This document shows, piece by piece, positions 4,240 to 31,888 of a stretch of DNA of 38,076 nt. Position numbers and translations under genes: made by a program. Position 1 is the stretch's first letter; the number at the start of each line of letters is the position of its first letter. Origin of the DNA: a virus. Taxonomy: Duplodnaviria > Caudoviricetes. The notes under the pieces were generated by a model. It searched no databases. It was given only the letters and a program-made list of their open reading frames with translations, and was not told where the DNA came from. The stretch is from positions 1-38,076 of IMG/VR virus record IMGVR_UViG_3300028392_000013, one strand, 5' to 3'.

Positions 4240-4360
4240 ATAACGGTTTGGTAACGACTAGACACGCAGGGCAGGATGAGCTTGCTTAGTTGGACAAAGT
4301 TGCGGCATACTGGATACACGGGCAAGCGAAGGGCGAGTCCACAAACGAAGGAAGATCCAA
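4240..4360 (+). promoter_or_regulatory. Early promoter/leader module 1
   Basis: ATAAC-n6-GTAAC (4240-4255), GACACGC (4261), TTGCTT-18-CATACT (4282-4311), GCGAAGGGC hairpin, AACGAAGGA RBS; same layout at 8336 and 10244. Confidence 0.75.
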
Positions 4361-4738
4361 ATGACAACACCAAAACTATCAACAGAAGCAATGGTCGCAC
4401 ATTACCTAGACAAGCCAACCATGCCAGACATGGTTAAGCGTTACGTCGAGCTCCGCGAAAAGTTTGCAGCAACGATCGACGAGATGTCGGGTTCACGCAT
4501 GAAGAACTTTAGCTCATACCTAGAAGGCAGCTACAACAGATCCGCAAGCGACGAGCTAGAGCTCGCAACCGCATGGATCGCAGCGAAGGCTGAGCTTGCA
4601 GCGGAAGCAACCAAACTTGCAACGCAGATGGAATTTATGATCAGCATCAAGTGTGATGTTGCCTTGAAGGAATGGCAGCAAGCGATGTCAGCATGGAACG
4701 AAACTCGTTTCGCAAACGCAGCAAAGGCAGGAAACTAA
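4361..4738 (+). CDS. Hypothetical early protein (helical)
   Basis: 125-aa ORF behind a conserved leader and RBS. Confidence 0.8.
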   Translation: MTTPKLSTEAMVAHYLDKPTMPDMVKRYVELREKFAATIDEMSGSRMKNFSSYLEGSYNRSASDELELATAWIAAKAELAAEATKLATQMEFMISIKCDVALKEWQQAMSAWNETRFANAAKAGN

Positions 4739-4998
4739 TGCGAATCATCACTGAGATCAAACACGGCGACATGACCGCAGAGATCAGATCACACGGCAAC
4801 GGCACCTACGAACTGGCATGGGACCAATACGGCATGGGCTGGTGCGATGACCCTGAATGGTTTGCTCAACTTGAAGAAGCACTCATCAGACTTGCGATCG
4901 TGATCCGTTGCGACCGTGTCGGTGGTGGAATCTTTACTTTAGATACAAATGATTTCTGCAAAGCAGCTGATCAATTCCTAACCAGCAACATCAACTAA
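4738..4998 (+). CDS. Hypothetical protein
   Basis: TAATG-coupled start MRIITEIK. Confidence 0.7.
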   Translation: MRIITEIKHGDMTAEIRSHGNGTYELAWDQYGMGWCDDPEWFAQLEEALIRLAIVIRCDRVGGGIFTLDTNDFCKAADQFLTSNIN

Positions 4999-5012
4999 CG
5001 AAGGAGCAACAA

Positions 5013-5804
5013 GTGAATACAACACTCGCAGTAAAGCAAGACCAGAACCAGTGGGACGCGACGCAGCTCGCAGCTCTCAGACAGATCGGACTAAGCGACG
5101 CACCCGCGGGCGACCTAGCTCTGTTCTTACACTACGCACAGAAGACTGGGCTAGATCCGTTTAGCCGTCAGATCTACATGATCGGCAGATGGGACTCACG
5201 CAGCGGCGGCAACCGCTACACGATCCAGAGCTCGATCGATGGCTTGCGAATCATTGCACAGCGATCAGGTGAATACGCTGGACAGACCGAACCTAAGTGG
5301 TGCGGCGACGACGGCGTGTGGAAGGACGTGTGGCTTGCACAGACGGCACCAACGGCAGCAAAGATCGGTGTTTACCGTCAAGGGTTTCAAGAACCGCTTT
5401 ACGCGGTCGCAACGATCGCAAGCTACATGCCTACTGGCAAGGACGGCAAGCCGCAGGGCTTATGGTCCAAGATGCCTGACGTTATGTTGGCGAAGGTTGC
5501 TGAAGCTTTGGCACTCCGCAAGGCGTTCCCGAATGACCTAAGCGGCATCTACGTAAGTGAGGAAATGGATCAAGCGGACGCCAAGGTGACCGCAGCTCCG
5601 ATCGCGATTGAAAAGGTTGCAGCTTTGACCGACGACCGCAGACAAGAACTGGTTACCGCGATCGCCAAGGCAAGCACCAAGGAAGAACTACGCAAGCTGT
5701 GGATCGACAACGGCGACGTGCTTGAAGTGGCTTTTACAAATAGCCTAGGCGACCAGACCACGCTGAAAGCGTTGATCATGACAGCACAAGGGGAACTCAA
5801 ATGA
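5013..5804 (+). CDS. bet: Phage single-strand annealing recombinase (Bet/RecT family)
   Basis: GLDPFSRQIY, SIDGLRIIAQRSGEYAG, WSKMPDVMLAKVAEALALRKAFP, GIYVSEEM. Confidence 0.93.
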   Translation: MNTTLAVKQDQNQWDATQLAALRQIGLSDAPAGDLALFLHYAQKTGLDPFSRQIYMIGRWDSRSGGNRYTIQSSIDGLRIIAQRSGEYAGQTEPKWCGDDGVWKDVWLAQTAPTAAKIGVYRQGFQEPLYAVATIASYMPTGKDGKPQGLWSKMPDVMLAKVAEALALRKAFPNDLSGIYVSEEMDQADAKVTAAPIAIEKVAALTDDRRQELVTAIAKASTKEELRKLWIDNGDVLEVAFTNSLGDQTTLKALIMTAQGELK

Positions 5805-6595: not shown

Positions 6596-6798
6596 TGCCT
6601 GTTGAAGATATTGTCGCTGTGATCAAAGTAGCAATTACCGAAGCAACGCTGGCGGAACGGGACCGCTTGATCCGTGAGCTTACAAGGCAAGGCGTGATCT
6701 GGAAAGACGACAAAGGCAACTGGCTGCATGTGCAACCACTGCCTGAAACGGCACGGCAGATCCCGTACGCTTTGAAACAGATCCGCAACTTAGATTAA
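6595..6798 (+). CDS. Hypothetical protein (ERxRLI family)
   Basis: MPVEDIVAVI...AERDRLIREL; similar to 15525-15755. Confidence 0.65.
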   Translation: MPVEDIVAVIKVAITEATLAERDRLIRELTRQGVIWKDDKGNWLHVQPLPETARQIPYALKQIRNLD

Positions 6799-6812
6799 TT
6801 GATTTGCCAGTT

Positions 6813-6841
6813 TTGACCCCTTCTTCATTGTGGGCTAAACT
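6813..6841 (+). promoter_or_regulatory. Near-consensus sigma-A promoter TTGACC-17-TAAACT
   Basis: -35 at 6813-6818, -10 at 6836-6841; predicted start ~6847-6848, at the first base of a hairpin. Confidence 0.75.
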
Positions 6842-6847
6842 GGATGG

Positions 6848-6938
6848 GCTAGTACTCCTTTGTTCTAGCAGGTCCTGACAGCTCCGCGGAACCCTTCCTA
6901 TCACACCCGCGTGCATGGTGCGACTCCATGCAGGACCA
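6848..6938 (+). ncRNA. Candidate small RNA: anti-RBS hairpin plus D-armless tRNA-like element
   Basis: GCTAG/CTAGC hairpin with loop TACTCCTTTGTT; acceptor stem GGTCCTG/CAGGACC+A; T-arm CATGG-TGCGACT-CCATG; GCGG/CCGC stem with large loop containing CCCTTCCT. Confidence 0.7.
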
Positions 6939-6949
6939 CGATCGATGAT

Positions 6950-7060
6950 CGCCTAACGGTTATCGGTAAGCGTCCCCGTGACTGCACCAAGGCAACCGCT
7001 ACGATTAGGCGTAAACGAGCTGCCGCGATCACGGGGATGCGGTAACAACAGGAGCAGCTC
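6950..7060 (+). ncRNA. Candidate pseudoknotted cis-regulatory leader RNA
   Basis: Crossing helices 6950-6956/7005-7011, 6970-6981/7029-7040 and 7017-7023/7054-7060. Confidence 0.5.
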
Positions 7061-7061
7061 C

Positions 7062-7472
7062 GTGGTTTGCCAGCAATGTGGTATCACCGATGACTCGACT
7101 GCGACCGCTAGGTATTTCTTTCGCACCAAGCTGAAGCTTTGCTCTTCATGCAGGGCGGTCCCTAGGTTTCAAGTAAAGACCGCAGCTGGCTGGTGCCGTC
7201 CTTGGAAGGGCGAAACAGATGACAACTGGAATCCGATAGACAACAACGGCAACCTTGTGATGCCCGGCATACGCAGTTGCGGATACAAGGACTGCATGCA
7301 CGAAGATCATGTGATACCTGAACCAGATACGATCGGCACTTTTAGGTGCAGACACAAACATGTGACGGCGACGATTTTGAGATCGCAAACTTTAGTTGAG
7401 ATACCGCCGTGTAGTATTTGCGGCGAACCAACGTCTATGGTTTCACGTGAAACAAATGGCGTTCGCTTATGA
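7062..7472 (+). CDS. Cys-rich zinc-binding protein
   Basis: GTG 7062 with AGGAG at 7050-7054 preferred over 6978; CQQC, CSSC, CGYKDCMHEDH, CSIC. Confidence 0.65.
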   Translation: MVCQQCGITDDSTATARYFFRTKLKLCSSCRAVPRFQVKTAAGWCRPWKGETDDNWNPIDNNGNLVMPGIRSCGYKDCMHEDHVIPEPDTIGTFRCRHKHVTATILRSQTLVEIPPCSICGEPTSMVSRETNGVRL

Positions 7473-8027: not shown

Positions 8028-8347
8028 CGCGAAAAGAGTTTCAACGGTTTCTTGATCGCGATCGCAGCTGCTATCACTGCGGTAGATCTGACGACACGCT
8101 GATCCCGCAGCACAGGAAGGGAAGGGGGATGGGTGGCAGCAAGGAACGGAACAGGGCAAGCAATGTGGTGGTGCTTTGCAGCTGGGCGAACGGCATGATT
8201 GAAGCTAACGCGGACTTTGCGGCGACGGCACGGGAGCTGGGCTGGGCTTTGAGATCAGGGCAGGATCCTGAAGGCACGCCGATCCGCGACGCGACGGGGA
8301 CGTGGTGGCAGCTGAATGACCAGTTTGAACGGTTTATTACGTTTTGA
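8012..8347 (+). CDS. HNH endonuclease family protein
   Basis: RDRSCYHCG, QHRKGRGMGG, NVVVLCSWAN. Confidence 0.8.
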   Translation: MAARLTRKEFQRFLDRDRSCYHCGRSDDTLIPQHRKGRGMGGSKERNRASNVVVLCSWANGMIEANADFAATARELGWALRSGQDPEGTPIRDATGTWWQLNDQFERFITF

Positions 8348-8440
8348 TAAATATGGCGTTTTTACCCTTTTATTAGACAAAGTTCAGTAGTGTGGAAGTA
8401 CAGCGAAGGGCTGGGCACCACCTAAACGAAGGAGCTACAA
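8336..8440 (+). promoter_or_regulatory. Early promoter/leader module 2
   Basis: ATTAC-n6-ATAAA, TTAGACAAAGTT, -10 TAGTGT (8388-8393), CAGC-GAAGG-GCTG hairpin, AACGAAGGAG RBS. Confidence 0.7.
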
Positions 8441-8689
8441 ATGACAACCACCACCACCATCTACGAGATCAGCACTTACGGCTTTGCAGGTTTCTACGGC
8501 AAGCAGCTGGTCAACGGCAAAGATGGAATGACACACGCAGCGATCGTAGTCAACGAGCACAATGAGATGACAATCACACTGCACGTCAACGAAAAGGCTG
8601 CACAAGCTGGACTACGCAGACTACTTTCAAGCTTCGACAAACAAGCACTCGGAGCAAGCGGCACCACTTACCCTGCATACGCAATCTAA
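8441..8689 (+). CDS. Hypothetical early protein
   Basis: 82-aa ORF with strong RBS. Confidence 0.75.
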   Translation: MTTTTTIYEISTYGFAGFYGKQLVNGKDGMTHAAIVVNEHNEMTITLHVNEKAAQAGLRRLLSSFDKQALGASGTTYPAYAI

Positions 8690-8714
8690 GACTGATCAGG
8701 AAGGATCAATCAAA

Positions 8715-9053
8715 ATGACAACAACAGTAAACACCTACAACATGAGCAACAAGGGCAACGCAAACACACTGGCAAACGAGCTCGTGATGATCTACCACGG
8801 ACGCGACTACGTGACACCATGGATCCGCGAAACCAAATACTGGACGGGCGTCGATTTTCTGGTTGCCACTTTCAACGGCGGAGCTTGGAACGGCGTGCGA
8901 CTTTCAGTGAACGAAGAAGGCACGATCAATATCTTCTTTATGAAACACGGAGCATCCAGCGGCGACGAAACCCGAATCATCGGCAGCACTTCATACGCGG
9001 TGCTGGAAGCAACAATCAACACTTACCTAAACAAGATCCTAGGGAGCAACTGA
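8715..9053 (+). CDS. Hypothetical early protein
   Basis: 112-aa ORF with AGGAAGGA RBS. Confidence 0.75.
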   Translation: MTTTVNTYNMSNKGNANTLANELVMIYHGRDYVTPWIRETKYWTGVDFLVATFNGGAWNGVRLSVNEEGTINIFFMKHGASSGDETRIIGSTSYAVLEATINTYLNKILGSN

Positions 9054-9151
9054 TGGACAGCTCAAACCTAAACTACTCAGACGAAGAACTTGATTGCACG
9101 CAAGAACAATACGACGCGTGGATCAACAGAACAAACGAAGGAGCAAACTGA
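9053..9151 (+). CDS. Short acidic peptide (32 aa)
   Basis: MDSSNLNYSDEELDCTQEQYDAWINRTNEGAN; TGATG coupling at both ends. Confidence 0.55.
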   Translation: MDSSNLNYSDEELDCTQEQYDAWINRTNEGAN

Positions 9152-9444
9152 TGGCGGCGACACTTTGGAAGGGCGTCCTAGGGTACAAGCTGGAGATCAA
9201 ACGCGAAGACAGCGGCACCCTTACCATAGGGCTGAACGAAGAAGATGTGATTGCGATCAGCAAGAACATCATCGAGCTCCTAGGCATCGACATTGAATGC
9301 GTGCCAGACGACGTGCAGCTGTGGCTTGAAAGCAAACGTCAGTGCGGCAGCTGCGAAGGCGACGGCAAGTTCGAAGGCGTACCAACTCCTAACGGTGAAG
9401 CAGCATGCACCGACTGCAACGGCGAAGGATTGGTGGCACGATGA
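9151..9444 (+). CDS. Hypothetical protein with DnaJ-type zinc finger
   Basis: CGSCEGDG...CTDCNGEG; AACGAAGGAG RBS. Confidence 0.75.
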   Translation: MAATLWKGVLGYKLEIKREDSGTLTIGLNEEDVIAISKNIIELLGIDIECVPDDVQLWLESKRQCGSCEGDGKFEGVPTPNGEAACTDCNGEGLVAR

Positions 9445-9659
9445 CCAGCAAGATGCATGCGGAGCTTTGGCAGCAAGCCGTGACCGCAGCGGTGAACTGG
9501 CTTACACACGGCTCCGCTTTGACGCCGCAGCAACGGTCCAGCTTTTACTCTTTCATTGATCAGATCGCAGAATACGAACGACAAGCACCAAGCTCGATCA
9601 AACGGCTGGTGCTTATGGACGCCGTCGAAATTGTGGCGAAGGGCAAGACCAATGACTAA
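9441..9659 (+). CDS. Hypothetical protein
   Basis: ATGA-coupled start MTSKMHAELW. Confidence 0.65.
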   Translation: MTSKMHAELWQQAVTAAVNWLTHGSALTPQQRSSFYSFIDQIAEYERQAPSSIKRLVLMDAVEIVAKGKTND

Positions 9660-9807: not shown

Positions 9808-10207
9808 TGCCAAGTTTCCTCGCCCGCGGATAAGGGGATCTGGTTTCAACCGAGCAAAGCGGGCGGGGATTTGGCACGTCTGGGAGCTCCAAGTTGCAAC
9901 CCGCCGCAAAGGGCAGTACTGTCGAACCCGTGGACATTGATCCGCACTCACGCCTAACCCGCGGAGCTATCGACCGTTAGAAGGCGTCGATGTGGCACGC
10001 CCGAATGGTCAGCACGGGCGATCGCTAGGACAGTAGCAGATCAGGATCACGATCATCGAAACGAGCTCCCCGATGACGCAGCACCGACGGGATCCTGAAT
10101 ATGGCGGAGCTGGGCAACTTGTAGTGGGTTGCTCCCTTATACCGACACCCGAAGACTTATACGGGCTGGATCGGGGGAAGGCTGGCTCTAAGCCTTTCCC
10201 TGCCCTT
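9807..10207 (+). ncRNA. Large structured non-coding region (candidate ncRNA or replication origin)
   Basis: Longest gene-free stretch; many nested helices closed by 9909-9916/10200-10207; strand assumed from context. Confidence 0.55.
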
Positions 10208-10243
10208 GGAGCTTACCGAGCTGAATGCGGTCAAATAGGGTTA

Positions 10244-10359
10244 ATAACGATTTGATAAACTTCGGTTAGAACACGCCGCAAAGTAGCATTTAGACCTGAA
10301 AAGTGGCATACTGGAACTACAGGGAAGCGAAGGGCAACCCTCCAAACGAAGGACACAAA
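10244..10359 (+). promoter_or_regulatory. Early promoter/leader module 3
   Basis: ATAAC-n6-ATAAA, AACACGC, TAGCAT-17-CATACT (10284-10312), GGG..GCGAAGGGC..CCC hairpin, AACGAAGGA RBS. Confidence 0.75.
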
Positions 10360-10644
10360 ATGCTACAGAAGGTAACCAACAAGGCGATCGCTGAGATCCT
10401 AGTCAACGCTGGAATTGAAAAGGCGATTTACAGCAATGCACGCAAGCAGCTGCCACAGAACGAAGGCTTCCGCTTTCAAACTTTCAAGAACGAATACCAC
10501 AACCTGCTAAGCATTTACGCAGCAACCACTTACTGGAACGACGACAAGCAGATCGAGCTTGCAACCAAAATCAGTGCAGCACTTACCGCGGCGGGCATTT
10601 CAAACGTACGCAACAACGACCGCGTCAGCATTGAACGAGCATAA
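10360..10644 (+). CDS. Hypothetical early protein
   Basis: Start MLQKVTNK at 10360 behind the conserved RBS; the GTG at 10303 lies inside the promoter. Confidence 0.75.
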   Translation: MLQKVTNKAIAEILVNAGIEKAIYSNARKQLPQNEGFRFQTFKNEYHNLLSIYAATTYWNDDKQIELATKISAALTAAGISNVRNNDRVSIERA

Positions 10645-10658
10645 GGAAGGGCAAGCAA

Positions 10659-10709
10659 ATGTCGGTGGTTCAAAATAACATCTCGAACAAAGGAGCAAAC
10701 AATGGATAG
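10659..10709 (+). CDS. 16-aa mini-ORF coupled to the exonuclease gene
   Basis: AGGAAGGG RBS then MSVVQNNISNKGANNG*; stop overlaps ATG 10702. Confidence 0.4.
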   Translation: MSVVQNNISNKGANNG

Positions 10710-14002: not shown

Positions 14003-15279
14003 AGCAGATCAAGATCGACAAGTTGATCACAGATCCAAATAACGCACGCAAGCACAGCGACAAGAACCTGAAAGCGATCGTTGGCAGCTTAAACCAGTTC
14101 GGGCAACGCAAACCGATCGTGATCGATAAAGACAACACGGTGATCGCGGGCAACGGAACTCTTGAAGCAGCGAAAAGGATCGGCTGGACTGAGCTCCAAG
14201 TTGTAAGGGTGCCAGCAAGCTGGACCGCAGACCAGATTAAAGCGTTTGCTTTGGCAGACAACAGGTCAAGCGAGCTCGCAAACTGGGACGATAGCATTTT
14301 GGCTCAACAACTCCTAGATTTAGACGAGCACGGCTGGGACATTTCAGAACTAGGTTTCAATCAACGACAGCTGCCACCGATCGGTGAACGCGAAGAAGAC
14401 GAACTGCCATTAACACCCGCAGATCCGAAAAGCAAGCTGGGCTACGTTTACCGCCTAGGCAAGCACCACGTGATCTGTGGCGACAGCACCGACGCAGCAA
14501 CATTGCAACGCGTGCTACAAGGGGAGCTGGCAGATATCGTGTTCACGGATCCGCCATACAACGTCGCATACCAAGGCGGAACTAAAGACAAGCTCACAAT
14601 CCAAAACGACCAGATGACTGAGTCACAGTTCCACAGTTTCCTGCTGGCGTCATACCAAGCGATGTTTCAGAACAGCAAAGAAGGAGCAGCGATCTACGTA
14701 TGCCACGCAGACACAAGCTCGGTGGCTTTCAGATCGTCGTTTGTTGAAGCGGGCTGGCTTTACAAGCAATGCCTGATCTGGGTAAAGGACTCGCTGGTTT
14801 TGAGTCGCCAAGATTACAACTGGATCCACGAACCAATTATTTACGGATGGAAGCCCGGTGCGGCTCACTCTTGGCTTGGACAATTCAGTGAAACAACAGT
14901 GCTCGACACAAAGCCCGCAGATTTGAAGAAGCTCAGCAAACAGGAACTGCTCGACATTTTGACTACAGCGATGCAGAAAGCAACGATCATCAGGGAACCA
15001 CGTCCACGCAGATCATCAGAACATCCAACAATGAAACCCGTAAACCTTGTGACAAGGCTGCTGAACAACAGTGCCAAGAAGGACTCCCTCGTTCTTGATC
15101 CCTTCGGCGGCAGCGGCTCCACGTTGATCGCAGCGGAACAACTCAACATGCGGGCAGCGATCTGCGAGCTTGACCCGAAGTACGTTGACGTGATCATCAA
15201 ACGCTGGGAAAACTTGACTGGCGGAACCGCAGAACTGATCCATCCAATAAACAAACAAACAAAGGAAAGCAATGACTAA
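13993..15279 (+). CDS. ParB-N domain fused to beta-class DNA methyltransferase (N6-A/N4-C)
   Basis: DPNNARKH..IAGNGTLEAA (ParB-like); FTDPPYN; HPTMKP; DPFGGSGST. Confidence 0.92.
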   Translation: MELEQIKIDKLITDPNNARKHSDKNLKAIVGSLNQFGQRKPIVIDKDNTVIAGNGTLEAAKRIGWTELQVVRVPASWTADQIKAFALADNRSSELANWDDSILAQQLLDLDEHGWDISELGFNQRQLPPIGEREEDELPLTPADPKSKLGYVYRLGKHHVICGDSTDAATLQRVLQGELADIVFTDPPYNVAYQGGTKDKLTIQNDQMTESQFHSFLLASYQAMFQNSKEGAAIYVCHADTSSVAFRSSFVEAGWLYKQCLIWVKDSLVLSRQDYNWIHEPIIYGWKPGAAHSWLGQFSETTVLDTKPADLKKLSKQELLDILTTAMQKATIIREPRPRRSSEHPTMKPVNLVTRLLNNSAKKDSLVLDPFGGSGSTLIAAEQLNMRAAICELDPKYVDVIIKRWENLTGGTAELIHPINKQTKESND

Positions 15280-15755: not shown

Positions 15756-16309
15756 AGTTAGCAATTGCTGATCCGCCATATTTAGGCAGAGCAGTTAGAT
15801 GGTATGGGAAAAATGGATGTGGCGATGGTTATGGAGTCAATCAGGCAGACAATCATCCTGAAGCTTACTTGTGGGACTTACCAGAAACACATCAAAACCT
15901 AGTGATTGATCTTGAAAAGAATTTTGATGGCTGGGCAATAGCGATGACCGTGCATTCATTATCGACCTACTTGAAAGTTGTAGAAACCGACTCACGAAAT
16001 GGAATTAGAATAGGCGTCTGGCATAAACCAACTGCTTATCCAAGTGGCAGCAGGATCGGTAATCACTGGGAACCCGTGCTATTCAAAATACCTAAAGAAC
16101 GCAAAGGAAGAAGCACTGGTAAACCAGTTAAAGATATTTTTACAGCCGCACCATTAAAAAATAACTTTGTGGGATCTAAACCGCCTGAATGGACCGCGTG
16201 GGTATTAGACATGTTAGGTCATCAAGCAGGAGATGAAATTGTCGATTTATTCACAGGATCAAATGCAGTAACAAACGCAATAAATAACATTAAAAAGGAA
16301 ATAAAATGA
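15752..16309 (+). CDS. Compact DNA methyltransferase
   Basis: ADPPY near the N-terminus; FVGSKP and DLFTGS at the C-terminus; AT-rich. Confidence 0.8.
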   Translation: MKLAIADPPYLGRAVRWYGKNGCGDGYGVNQADNHPEAYLWDLPETHQNLVIDLEKNFDGWAIAMTVHSLSTYLKVVETDSRNGIRIGVWHKPTAYPSGSRIGNHWEPVLFKIPKERKGRSTGKPVKDIFTAAPLKNNFVGSKPPEWTAWVLDMLGHQAGDEIVDLFTGSNAVTNAINNIKKEIK

Positions 16310-16593
16310 AACTTAGACCACTAAACGACAACCTGATCATTGAACCAATCCAAGTTGAAGCAACAACAGCAAGCGGACTGGTTCTGCCAGACGCCGCAGT
16401 AGACAAACCAGAACACGCAACCGTGATTGCAACCGGTGACGGCAGCTTAACGTTTGACGGAACCCGCGTGCCGATCGGCGTGGACGTTGGCGAGATGATC
16501 TTGTTCAACAAGCACGCTGGCATGGAGCTGAAGGCGGGCGACGGTAAATACTTGTTGATTGCAGCTCGCGACATTTTGGCGGTCATAGAATGA
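16306..16593 (+). CDS. groES: Co-chaperonin GroES
   Basis: LRPLNDNLII, TTASGLVLPD, VIATGDG, VGEMILFNKHAG, DILAVIE. Confidence 0.95.
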   Translation: MKLRPLNDNLIIEPIQVEATTASGLVLPDAAVDKPEHATVIATGDGSLTFDGTRVPIGVDVGEMILFNKHAGMELKAGDGKYLLIAARDILAVIE

Positions 16594-21384: not shown

Positions 21385-23238
21385 ATGGGAATCTTTGATA
21401 AAGCAATCGAACGTCTAGCGACACAGATCAGCAAGGCAACACCGCAACCAATCGTCACACCGATCACCGACGATCAGATCCGCAACGCAATGCAGCAATA
21501 CGGCGTATCGGTTGGCTTGCCACGCGATCCACGTTTAGCGGGCATACCTTTCAGCCCCGGCTTACCGATCGTCCCGTCATCGATCAACCCGCTAGGACCA
21601 GACGGCAGACCGCAGCCACGCCGCTACGAATACGCGTCCGCACAGAACATCAACATCACACCAACAAAGCTCGTCCCTTTTGGAACGCTTAGAGCAGCTG
21701 CAGAACAGATCGACATCCTACGCCGATGCATTGAAGTGTTGAAAGCCAAGATCATCGGCATGGAATGGGACATCGTCCTAGGCGAAGACGCCGTCGAAAA
21801 GATTATGGCGGAAACGGGCGAACGCAGCTACACGAAAGCAATGCAGATCGCAAAGGACAAGTACGGCACCGAGATAGATCGGCTCAAACAGTTCTGGGAA
21901 ATGCCTGATGTCAGCAACGGGCTAGTTTTCGGCGACTGGCTAAACATGGCACTTGAAGACATCCTAGTTTTAGACGCCTTAGCGATCTACCCGCAACGCA
22001 GCATCAAAGGCGAACTCAAAGGCTTACAGATCATCGACGGATCCACAATCAAACCACTGATCGATGACCGCGGCATGCGACCAACACCACCGAACCCTGC
22101 GTTCCAACAGATCCTGTATGGCTTTCCAAGATCCGAGTTTGCGGCAGCTGACGACAGCGAACAAGCAGACGGCGAATTCAGCTCAGACGAGCTCGCATAC
22201 CTAGTCCGCAACAGACGCAGCAACAGCATCTACGGCTACTCACCAACAGAACGAGCACTACCGATCGCGGACATTTACCTGAGAAGGCAGCAATGGATCC
22301 GTGCCGAATACACCGACGGCGTGATCCCCGAACTCCTTTTGAAAAGCGACGGCACTTTCACACCTGACCAGATCCGTGCATACGAAAACATTTTGAACGA
22401 CTACCTAAGCGGACAGACCGAACAACGCAAGCGAGCAACGATCCTGACACAAGGGCTAGAACCAGTGCAGCTTGAAGGCTACGGCGAAAAGTTCAAGGAC
22501 ACCTTAGACGAATACCTGATCACCGCGATCACTGGACACTTTGGTGTGCAGCCAAGCGAGATCGGCATGACAGCTAAGCAAGGGCTAGGCAACAGCGGCG
22601 TGCAGCACGGGCAAGCAAGCAGTGCTGAACAGATCGCAACGATCCCGCTGGCAAACTGGCTGAGCAAAATGTTAAGCCAGTTGAGCTACAGCTGGCTCGG
22701 AGCACCAAGGGCTTTAGAGTTCAAGATCATGCCATCATCCCGAACCGACTTTGAAGCGGTCGCAAGGGCAAACGACATCAAACTGAAGAACGGCACCCTG
22801 ACCCGCAACGAAGCACGCAGCAAAGAAGGTCTGCCACTTTTGAATTCACCCGTCGCAGATCAACCAACAATCTACACAAGCAGCGACGTCCTGATCATCA
22901 CCGAAGAAGGCGTGGAAAGCATAAGCGGTGTTGATCCGTCAGCGGAACTACCAGCCATACCAGAGCAGCCAGCACAGGTCGAAGCTAAGCCAGAAGAAGC
23001 CGCAGCTCCGATCGCAGCCGCAGAAGACAACACACCGACAGAAGAACCAAGCGACCAGCCAGACAACAAGGCGGCACGCAACGAGCTCTACAAGTTTATG
23101 AGATGGATCCGCAAGAACCCGACTAACACGTTTGCCTTTGAGCACGTGCCAGCAACATACGCGGAAACACTAAACAAGTTCATCAGCGTCGAAGACTTTG
23201 AAGGAGCACGCTGGTACGCGGAACGCTACCTAGCATGA
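21385..23238 (+). CDS. Portal protein
   Basis: 617 aa after terminase; IIDGSTIKP, IYGYSPTE, LTRNEARSKEGLP. Confidence 0.92.
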   Translation: MGIFDKAIERLATQISKATPQPIVTPITDDQIRNAMQQYGVSVGLPRDPRLAGIPFSPGLPIVPSSINPLGPDGRPQPRRYEYASAQNINITPTKLVPFGTLRAAAEQIDILRRCIEVLKAKIIGMEWDIVLGEDAVEKIMAETGERSYTKAMQIAKDKYGTEIDRLKQFWEMPDVSNGLVFGDWLNMALEDILVLDALAIYPQRSIKGELKGLQIIDGSTIKPLIDDRGMRPTPPNPAFQQILYGFPRSEFAAADDSEQADGEFSSDELAYLVRNRRSNSIYGYSPTERALPIADIYLRRQQWIRAEYTDGVIPELLLKSDGTFTPDQIRAYENILNDYLSGQTEQRKRATILTQGLEPVQLEGYGEKFKDTLDEYLITAITGHFGVQPSEIGMTAKQGLGNSGVQHGQASSAEQIATIPLANWLSKMLSQLSYSWLGAPRALEFKIMPSSRTDFEAVARANDIKLKNGTLTRNEARSKEGLPLLNSPVADQPTIYTSSDVLIITEEGVESISGVDPSAELPAIPEQPAQVEAKPEEAAAPIAAAEDNTPTEEPSDQPDNKAARNELYKFMRWIRKNPTNTFAFEHVPATYAETLNKFISVEDFEGARWYAERYLA

Positions 23239-24890
23239 GCTGGCAGAAGAAGTTTGACGGCACCGCTGAACGATTAGCGGCAAGGCACGCAGACAAAATC
23301 AACAACGCAATGAGCAAAGGCATCAACGTCGCCGCGATCGTAAGAGCATGGCTGGAAACGCAACCAAGCCCGAAGACCACGCGAGAGCAAGCAGCGGTAT
23401 GGGTTCACCACAATGTGATCCCGAACACCGAACCACTTGAAGCAGCTTTGAAAGACATCTATGTTGAAGGCTACGCGTTAGGGCAAGCGTTCGCAGCGAC
23501 CGCCTATGCCAGAGCAAAGCTGTCGATCAAGAAGGCGGCACCAACGGGCGACGACTTGCGGGCAGCGTTCGAAACTGACTGGGACAACTGGCAAGCAGGA
23601 TCCGAAGCTCAAGCACTCAAGACAGAGAAGCCCGGTGCCTTACAGGATTTATTTGACCGAGCAGCGATCAGTGAAAAGACTAAGATCTGGAAGAACAGCA
23701 TGGATCGTCTAGGCGTGGTCATGGCAGACACGGCACGGGCAGGGCTGGGAGTTTCAACAACACAACAAGCGATTATTGAAGCACAGATCGGCTGGGGATT
23801 TGACGAAGCGTTAAAGGATCCGTACAAGGCGATGCGGATCGCACGCACCGAGATCAACCGAGCTCAAAGCTTAGCGACCATGGACACATACCGAGAGTAC
23901 GGATTGGAAAAGGTTGAATGGTTGGCAAGCGAAGGCGAATGCGACATCTGCTCAGGGAACATGGATCTAGGACCGCAACCGATCGACTTTGAATGGGACA
24001 GCATAGAAGGCGGAACAACGGAACCACCCGCACACCCGAACTGCTTGTGCACTTTGATGCCAGCGTTAGACAACGAACCAACAACGGACGAAGCTCAGGT
24101 TGAAGGGGAAACCGATCAGGGCGATCAGGTTGAGCTGCCAGCTGATGTTGAAGCGGCGGACCTTTCAGCGGTGGCGGTTGATTTGCCTGAAGCGGAGCAG
24201 CCAAGCACCGACGGCACGATCACGAATCATGAAGCCGAACCAGTTGCGGAAGTTTCAACAACCACCGCAACAAACATAGACAACTACAAACCAGCGGAAT
24301 ACAAAGAGCTGGCAGCTCTCGTGCCAGATCGTCTTAATGACAACGTAAAACTGCAGGACGCAATTGCTGAATACACGGGCAATAGCTACGTGCAAATGAA
24401 TGAATACCTGCGAGAAGGCAGAAACATTAGCGACAAAATGAAAGAGCACGTCGACAATCTACAAACCGCACTAGAATCACAAACCATTCCATCAGATATG
24501 CAATTTCAACGCGGACAATACAGTTTCAATAATTTTACAGTAAATACTAATCAACAAGGAGAGCTGCAATTTGAAAAATACGAGTACGATGCAAATTTCA
24601 ATAGACAATATGAAACGATGAGCATTGACTCGATAGTTGGACAAACATGGGAATCGGAAGGTTTCCTGTCAACAACAACAGCTACCGACTGGCAAGGCAA
24701 TGCAGCAACAAATAGGTTTCAAAACTACGATATACAAATTCACGTTTTAGCTCCAGCTGGCACACAAGGTATGGTTGTTAATAGCTATGAATCAGAATTC
24801 TTAATGCCACATGGCACCACGTTTGAGATTGTGAAAACTGAAGCAATAGGAATACAAGCACACGTGTGGATGAAAGTGATTAATCAATAA
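23235..24890 (+). CDS. MuF-like minor head protein with C-terminal ADP-ribosyltransferase (VIP2/C3-like R-S-E) domain
   Basis: RIARTEINRA, CDIC, PPAHPNCLC (MuF); YT..SY..MNEYLR, QRG, FLSTT, ESEFLMP (ART). Confidence 0.88.
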   Translation: MSWQKKFDGTAERLAARHADKINNAMSKGINVAAIVRAWLETQPSPKTTREQAAVWVHHNVIPNTEPLEAALKDIYVEGYALGQAFAATAYARAKLSIKKAAPTGDDLRAAFETDWDNWQAGSEAQALKTEKPGALQDLFDRAAISEKTKIWKNSMDRLGVVMADTARAGLGVSTTQQAIIEAQIGWGFDEALKDPYKAMRIARTEINRAQSLATMDTYREYGLEKVEWLASEGECDICSGNMDLGPQPIDFEWDSIEGGTTEPPAHPNCLCTLMPALDNEPTTDEAQVEGETDQGDQVELPADVEAADLSAVAVDLPEAEQPSTDGTITNHEAEPVAEVSTTTATNIDNYKPAEYKELAALVPDRLNDNVKLQDAIAEYTGNSYVQMNEYLREGRNISDKMKEHVDNLQTALESQTIPSDMQFQRGQYSFNNFTVNTNQQGELQFEKYEYDANFNRQYETMSIDSIVGQTWESEGFLSTTTATDWQGNAATNRFQNYDIQIHVLAPAGTQGMVVNSYESEFLMPHGTTFEIVKTEAIGIQAHVWMKVINQ

Positions 24891-31812: not shown

Positions 31813-31888
31813 GTGGCGGTCGCGGCTTCGGTTAGCCTATCCCCCGCGACCGTCCACCCTTAAACAAAATAGGCAGAAGAAGGCTAAC
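31813..31888 (+). promoter_or_regulatory. Hairpin whose loop can pair with the downstream translation start (pseudoknot)
   Basis: Stem 31817-31825/31844-31852; loop GTTAGCCT (31831-31838) complementary to AGGCTAAC (31881-31888). Confidence 0.6.

Follow-up and report, generated by a model that had tools for sequence, protein, structure and literature searches.

Positions 6813–6938 of the phage genome analyzed here hold a structured RNA element that is real and probably functional, and sequence comparison points to antisense control of early translation as its role. The window, that is, the whole stretch of DNA under analysis, is a complete phage record of 38,076 bases with direct terminal repeats, encoding WhiB, RecT, a Cas4-like exonuclease, RusA, two methyltransferases, terminase, portal, and tail proteins. 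The original prediction was of a promoter-driven small RNA on a tRNA-like scaffold, with two loops antisense to the leaders of the phage's own early genes; every sequence motif that it named was found in place. Moreover, a conserved structured RNA with loops complementary to its own early ribosome-binding sites (RBSs) is supported, as far as sequence can tell, by base pairs kept in a sister contig (L002) and by the loops of 9–10 lineages. We take the presence of WhiB to indicate a host in Actinomycetota. No cultured phage matched the DNA of the locus, and the relatives of the exonuclease are below 40% identity. The window also encodes a GroES co-chaperonin (16306–16593), for which close relatives were not found in genome contigs and which gave no host assignment, and an ADP-ribosyltransferase domain fused to a minor head protein (MuF-like; 23235–24890).

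Structure and relatives of the RNA element

The element and its immediate surroundings comprise the following features.

6813..6841, + strand: predicted sigma-A-type promoter, TTGACC-17-TAAACT (9 of 12 matches)
6848..6869, + strand: hairpin P1 with loop 1 (CTCCTTTGTT), which complements the early tag AACRAAGGA(G); an A-U pair is changed to G-C in L002 (double change)
6871..6938, + strand: tRNA-like body without a D arm, from the fold and comparison with L002; no ARAGORN or Rfam match
6941..7046, + strand: a pair of additional stems separating the RNA from the next gene, from the folds of the window and L002
7062..7472, + strand: Cys/His-rich zinc-finger-like gene, the marker of this slot by gene order across loci

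As proposed, a hairpin (6848–6869) is followed by a tRNA-like fold (6871–6938), and a single nucleotide separates P1 from the acceptor-like stem in both the window and L002. The body consists of a 7-bp acceptor-like stem (6871–6877/6931–6937), an unpaired linker, a 5-bp central stem with a 17-nt loop (loop 2; 6890–6906, CCCTTCCT), a T arm with a 5-bp stem and a 7-nt loop, and a discriminator A. It contains a 12-bp acceptor/T stack, and neither an encoded CCA nor a G3-U70 pair is present. ARAGORN reported no tRNA gene at the element, and Rfam gave no match at E values up to 1 across the window and up to 10 within 6780–7070. The promoter motif lies at 6813–6841 as claimed, but the match alone is not above chance (5 sites in the window versus 8.6 expected), and the same holds for the fold of 6846–6945 alone (z = −1.71; 16 of 200 shuffles as good). 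The element stands above chance because of the comparative evidence, namely the pairs kept in L002 and the genome-wide rank of loop 1 given below. In L002 the element recurs within an unchanged gene order, with all 22 base pairs kept and one double change in each of four helices; in this comparison of only two sequences, 31 of 500 shuffles reached that result, and slid controls gave no double changes. We regard the structure as real, with modest statistics from L002. The stems at 6941–7046 also retain their structure in L002 despite an altered sequence, as judged from the two folds taken as wholes.

To collect the family loci, searches with RecT and the exonuclease were combined with a profile of the downstream Cys/His-rich gene, whose frame in the window matched no Pfam or PHROG family, and 17 distinct upstream regions remained after two weak self-hits were excluded. 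A structured RNA occupies the slot in 15 of the 17, behind a sigma-A-like box and before the zinc-finger gene, and every one of the 15 members folds stably, includes a large pyrimidine-rich loop, and has a TANNNT box (chosen by eye) about 5–8 nt 5′ of the RNA. Five are tRNA-shaped (the window, L002, G011, G013, and L171), and because the other ten display the loop on a long plain hairpin, the tRNA shape is not needed. Hairpin-only relatives often finish in a terminator-like U run; in G001, G007, and G008, a second hairpin sequesters the downstream RBS. The window's layout of a hairpin and then a tRNA-like domain recurs in G002. Loci G014 and G015 have the marker gene without such an RNA, and G016 has neither. 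When a covariance model built from the window and L002 was searched against 55 sources (827,712 bases), the next best hits were G013, G011, and G002 (rough E values of 0.003, 0.01, and 0.055, respectively), each of them in the slot, and L171 was recovered with the filters off. An exact-pattern scan of viral contigs for the tRNA-like body gave no matches. Three other scans gave no further convincing homologue: a 14-mer scan gave 102 loci, none a homologue by the T-arm/acceptor descriptor; a loop-plus-T-arm pattern gave 16 loci (the known homologue, eight ordinary tRNA-Gly, and seven unconvincing); and the last pattern scan gave two, the known homologue and a chance match of 9.3 bits.

Early ribosome-binding sites and their matching loops

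The 11-nt segment CTCCTTTGTTC of loop 1 (6855–6865) is an exact complement of GAACAAAGGAG at 10685–10695, the exonuclease RBS, as originally predicted. The recurring RBS motif, hereafter the tag AACRAAGGA, occurs at all the claimed sites (4344, 4997, 8425, 9134, 10345, and 10686) and at 1159, 2473, and 15258 as well. The motifs ascribed to loop 2 as targets of CCCTTCCTATCA (6892–6903) are likewise present: AGGAAGGG at 10644 and also at 8114, TGATCAGGAAGG at 8693, and GAAGGG at 4328, 8405, and 10329, which are 3 of its 26 copies on the plus strand. The leaders and starts concerned are as follows.

4306..4363, + strand: early leader 1, read from the sequence as a CATACT box, a 5′ hairpin with a GAAGG loop, the tag AACGAAGGA, and ATG 4361
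4997..5015, + strand: tag AACGAAGGAG upstream of RecT
8388..8443, + strand: early leader 2, read from the sequence as a TAGTGT box, a GAAGG hairpin, the tag AACGAAGGAG, and ATG 8441
8693..8717, + strand: loop-2 type site TGATCAGGAAGG upstream of ATG 8715
9134..9153, + strand: tag AACGAAGGAG upstream of ATG 9151
10307..10362, + strand: early leader 3, read from the sequence as a CATACT box, a GAAGG hairpin, the tag AACGAAGGA, and ATG 10360
10685..10704, + strand: tag GAACAAAGGAG upstream of the Cas4-like exonuclease, complementary to loop 1 over 11 nt
15258..15274, + strand: seventh tagged start, AACAAAGGA, with ATG 15272, not within the defined early block

Loop 1 (CTCCTTTGTT) complements AACRAAGGA at 6 of the 24 early starts versus 1 of the 50 others, and the two commonest early 7-mers of the window both pair with the RNA (7 and 5 of 24 early starts, as compared with 1 and 0 of 50 others). 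Starts were taken from a simple gene caller, by which several late starts were mis-called. When the whole genome was scanned blind for segments that complement the 24 early start regions, loop 1 ranked first among 400 peaks; the 16S tail also pairs better with early starts in the window, and the excess of loop 1 over it is marginal (p = 0.052). A gene on the opposite strand using the loop as its RBS was rejected, with no start yielding more than 22 codons in any of the 15 family members.

Three further observations concern these early regions. The AGGAAGGG site (10644–10709) precedes a 16-codon frame, possibly a leader peptide, that begins at ATG 10659 and overlaps the exonuclease start. A (GA)CAAAGT(T) motif, a possible operator, is repeated 5′ of the three early −10 boxes (4293–4302, 8376–8384, and 10280–10286) and is found in L002, too. 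Upstream of early leader 3, about 450 bases (9808–10255) are stem- and GC-rich without a convincing gene, possibly an origin or another RNA.

Over its early RBSs, every lineage repeats a sequence of its own, to which its own loop is complementary. The loop of G001 (CCCTATTTCTC) complements four starts over 10–11 nt and that of G003 (TGTTTCCCCT) four starts over 10–12 nt, and the loops of G004/L203/G005 (TCTCCCTT), G011 (TTCCATTTCC), and G013/L171 (CCCCATTTCC) complement several of their own early starts; the matches of the L002 loop are weak (6–8 nt). When cognate and shuffled pairings were compared for ten lineages with one member each, the cognate score was reached in 5 of 200,000 permutations when match length was scored and in 22 of 200,000 when energy was, and a late-gene control gave 77,195 of 200,000 (one column, from a genome with no late genes, being mean-filled). 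Over 36 choices of representatives from nine lineages (G001, G008, and G007 merged), p was at most 0.00024 by length and 0.009 by energy, and without the window's lineage it was at most 0.0014 over 18 choices. For these tests, lineages were assigned by eye, RecT–WhiB homology set the limits of the early regions, and starts came from the simple caller; an earlier energy matrix, which took in all genes, had mainly reflected G+C content. Co-change was also seen between the sisters G001 and G008, where A in the loop becomes G and T in the tag becomes C at all three orthologous genes tagged in both; among the other orthologues, one tag is lost and two genes are tagged in G008 only. Genome-wide, the T form of the tag occurs 4 times in G001 versus 0 in G008, and the loosely defined C form 6 versus 7. 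Collectively, the co-change of loops with leader motifs that the original prediction implied was borne out across 9–10 lineages by the permutation tests.

Blind genome scans of the 15 phages placed the RNA first in 5 (including the window), at ranks 2–6 in 4, and at ranks 11–45 in 6; a first scan with 8-mers over all genes had been noisy and did not single out the RNA. In 5 of the 15 phages the RNA pairs with the commonest early 7-mer, and in 9 with one of the top three. In ten of the blind scans, other CU-rich stretches outscored the RNA, as might be expected if the loop were a by-product, either an inverted copy of a leader repeat or a pyrimidine-rich loop pairing by chance with strong, purine-rich early RBSs, and the structure acted only as a terminator or processing signal. 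Tags persisting without a loop in several cluster K phages (see below) and in G014, where GGAAGGC recurs at 7 of 22 early starts and no such RNA turned up in a record that is 92% complete, point the same way. Nevertheless, loop and tag differ from lineage to lineage and still fit each other, the match does not extend beyond the loops, and the single-base change in G001/G008 is a joint one; we hold a by-product to be very improbable.

As a separate observation, early promoters of G013/L171 repeat GAAC-N4-GT(T/G)C (L359:4325–4385, 8908–8968, and 9422–9482; L171 early leaders), which we take to resemble a Gram-positive LexA box; host SOS control of these early genes is possible.

Proposed action of the RNA and rival readings

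Antiparallel order of the two loops and their targets had been proposed to permit two-point binding, and this part of the prediction received mixed support. In the window, 20 of 74 starts score in the antiparallel order versus 19 in the reversed one, the latter scoring as often because both loops share a CCTT core. G011 supports the antiparallel order (14 versus 5 of 61 starts, with no reversed match in its four promoter leaders), whereas L002 (3 versus 7 of 13) and G012 (1 versus 5 of 57) do not. The three highest two-site scores among the 74 window starts belong to the three promoter leaders, each of which has a 5′ hairpin exposing GAAGG, and the third is tied with the exonuclease start. Since loop 1 lies 5′ of the acceptor stem, we infer that RNase P processing as in C4, by cleavage at 6871, would part loop 1 from loop 2.

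Given their complementarity, pairing of the loops with the early tags is quite likely at the molecular level, and it is moderately probable that the RNA is an antisense repressor of early-gene translation acting as a lytic timer. As a timer, a small RNA would be transcribed from about position 6848, with the tRNA-like body providing its stability and end formation. Its unpaired loops would likely pair in trans with the lineage-specific tag that overlaps the early RBSs, the pairing presumably beginning at the open loop without a chaperone. As the RNA accumulated during infection, translation of the tagged early genes would be blocked, the effect being repression and not activation, and early functions that are toxic or spent, namely RecT, the exonuclease, and the first genes of the three early operons, would come under a delayed negative feedback. 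The predicted promoter is sigma-A-like and by itself gives no sign of late timing.

The same pairing could instead serve immunity or a carrier state, as with C4 or CI: the RNA would be on in resting infection and would silence the early genes of the resident phage and of any related newcomer bearing that tag. Like immunity specificities (the C4 a′ loop, in the available text of PMC5320573), loop and tag diverge quickly from one lineage to another, the host-type promoter would be active without phage factors, and, in agreement with the original description of a phage with no recognizable repressor, no repressor family was matched among the 62 window proteins in family searches including Pfam and PHROG. 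However, those searches matched no integrase family in the window either, tyrosine integrase is absent from all five near-complete genomes of the phage group, a search of 80 genome loci turned up no close relative in prophage form (RecT identity at most 64%), and the downstream operon carries an HNH nuclease gene, not an immunity cassette. The lytic timer is favored over immunity, which we regard as unlikely.

The position of the RNA at the 5′ end of the zinc-finger/HNH operon is compatible with a sensor leader, in which early mRNAs would bind the loops, alter the fold or processing of the 214-nt leader, and switch that operon without being repressed themselves. In an alternative modeled fold of the full leader, part of the tRNA-like body may pair with the downstream RBS, to which loop 1 is also predicted to pair through one bulge (−10.1 kcal); the second hairpins of G001, G007, and G008 described above, and cis pairing of a loop with an RBS elsewhere in these phages (the tail chaperone hairpin), would fit as well. 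On the other hand, the loops of the relatives pair only weakly with the downstream RBS (no better than −7.2 kcal where listed, while in most of them the best early starts reach −10 to −17), and the tags overlap Shine-Dalgarno sites, which would be unnecessary for a pure sensor. We consider such sensing improbable and retain repression of the tagged early genes as the preferred reading.

The tail chaperone hairpin is a long hairpin after the tail tube gene (31813–31888 in the window), present in all 11 genomes compared (the window, G001, G002, G003, G005, G007, G008, G011, G012, G014, and G016). Its loop complements the RBS of the next gene (GTTAGCCT to AGGCTAAC in the window), and by eye both differ together between phages, which suggests a cis pseudoknot limiting translation of a likely tail assembly chaperone. 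Apparent relocated copies of the antisense RNA in G014 and G016 proved to be this cis hairpin.

Scaffold origin and comparison with known RNAs

The tRNA-like body has an acceptor stem and a T arm, with an unpaired analogue of the D loop replacing the D stem. An 84-nt tag-less tmRNA domain was found in G003 (RF00023, 54.6 bits, above the Rfam cut-off; L109:8962–9045, − strand), and one of about 84 nt with G3-U70 lies directly behind the antisense hairpin in G002 (L108:12980–13063, + strand); RF00023 matched L109 only and gave no match in the window, L246, L252, or L108. By eye, the linker after the acceptor strand changes step by step from two host tmRNAs by way of G003, G002, G013, G011, and L002 to the window. 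At position 3-70, where G3-U70 is the alanine identity pair, U3-A70 is found in the window and L002, G3-C in G011, G013, and L171, and G3-U70 in the G002 and G003 domains. On balance, we think that the body derives from a tmRNA domain that was taken over and now acts as a stable carrier and a signal for processing, one that has likely lost its alanine identity and carries the second antisense loop. An ordinary tRNA was rejected for want of a D arm, for a central loop of 17 nt versus the 7-nt anticodon loop, and for the negative ARAGORN result; a degenerate tRNA-Gly(UCC), proposed from CTTCC in loop 2, was ruled out by the 17-nt loop and the missing D arm.

Mycobacteriophage DS6A has a tag-less tmRNA consisting of the tRNA-like domain only, described as a likely tmRNA inhibitor in the available text of PMC4131195 and PMC11915505. 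The window body resembles it in having an acceptor stem, a T arm, no D stem, and a linker like the tmRNA D-loop analogue, and differs in having an anti-RBS loop and no RF00023 match, G3-U70, or encoded CCA. Inhibition of tmRNA by a similar molecule, reported in those papers, together with the domains in G003 and G002, would accord with a tRNA/tmRNA decoy for SmpB, RNase P, or anticodon nuclease, and CTCCTTT, common to loop 1 and the 16S tail of two Microbacteriaceae genomes, with a generic anti-Shine-Dalgarno RNA acting on host mRNAs. Against a decoy, 10 of the 15 members have no tRNA shape around the loop, and G3-U70 is absent from all five that do. Against host mRNAs, three stand-in Microbacteriaceae genomes of 1.9–3.3 Mb have the full tag ahead of a start codon only 12, 11, and 7 times (reversed-pattern controls, 3, 2, and 4; the true host may differ), versus 7 of 74 phage starts, and the lineage-matched co-change with phage tags would be left unexplained. 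A few host mRNAs could be targets, as the original prediction cautioned, but because the loops co-change with phage tags, phage mRNAs appear to be the selected ones; action on the host in either form is, in our estimate, quite unlikely.

A partly similar arrangement occurs in cluster K mycobacteriophages. Their start-associated sequences (SAS) are repeated extended RBSs before non-structural genes, whose role is called unknown in the available text of PMC3203893 and PMC11373665, and one reversed SAS copy is reported in four K1 phages (available text of PMC3203893). In Adephagia (JF704105), we found that the reversed SAS makes up the 10-nt loop of a long hairpin, which follows a TAGACT box at genes 92/93 (L372:30660–30715, ~58,660–58,715), in a region that matches 193 phage records; late transcription begins between genes 92 and 93 (available text of PMC11373665). 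Among 13 cluster K phages, 4 have a perfectly complementary loop, 2 a degenerate one, and 7 none, and the tag is unchanged in all five tested, that is, without co-change with the loop, so that such tags can persist without one. Repeated extended RBSs and a complementary hairpin loop (in 4 of 13, there behind a TAGACT box) are shared with our system, whereas the SAS are invariant where tested and occur in temperate phages with a protein repressor; we claim no homology with the window RNA. The Adephagia late-leader hairpin is a candidate anti-SAS RNA, a lead for timing and no confirmation of it.

A broader proposal, to which we give less than even confidence, is a protein-free actinophage regulon, in which a private tag marks the early RBSs, one mirror RNA turns the whole set off as early expression gives way to late, and the module is portable on a tmRNA domain or plain hairpins; the reversed SAS of cluster K1, at the start of the late transcript, would be the same device and would explain the role of SAS. 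If so, tag-less tmRNA domains in phages would gain a role as scaffolds, and the SAS, their role still called unknown in 2024 (available text of PMC11373665), would have a candidate RNA partner at the late start. The single-base pair of G001/G008 would offer a ready orthogonality test for a compact actinobacterial translation switch. No such motif appears in the available main text of PMC2864571 and PMC10690425 (10,006 candidate viral RNAs), and no description of the RNA or of an anti-SAS RNA was found in the literature searched, subscription papers being mostly beyond reach.

Among host RNAs, the mycobacterial B11/6C sRNA also has two pyrimidine-rich loops and purine-rich RBS partners and requires no Hfq, an example of chaperone-free RBS blocking by pyrimidine loops in actinobacteria (available text of PMC10470900). 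It differs in being a host RNA with C runs and broad targets, while the window loop is a mixed C/U complement of a lineage-specific phage tag; the window element gave no Rfam match to 6C/B11.

Kinship with the C4 RNA of P1/P7 or the CI RNA of P4, which the original prediction had invoked, was not supported: the element has no Rfam match (for the C4 model RF01695, at E values up to 1 in the window and up to 10 in 6780–7070), and its body resembles the tRNA-like domain of tmRNA. Like C4, it is a small phage RNA with tRNA-like features, exposed RBS-covering loops, fast-changing specificity, and GGT opening the acceptor-like stem (C4 according to the available text of PMC5320573). This GGT, corresponding to GG(T/A) at the C4 processing site, is found at 6871 and in L002, with GGG in G011, G013, and L171, and joint change of loop and target was found in the permutations and in the single base of G001/G008. 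In C4, both antisense loops lie inside one three-stem RNA, which is set free by cleavage at the foot of the closing stem; here the loop 1 hairpin ends outside the acceptor-like stem. P4 CI is likewise a small phage RNA with tRNA-like features, but it works through transcription termination (available text of PMC4825925). Unlike both, the window RNA would target 6–7 starts in three other operons and not its own immunity operon, its loop 1 lies outside the tRNA-like body, its scaffold is exchangeable with a plain hairpin, and it belongs to an actinobacterial phage in which no integrase family was matched. If the broader proposal is true, one small RNA and a short re-codable tag control a whole gene class without a repressor protein, whereas C4 and CI act on one operon.
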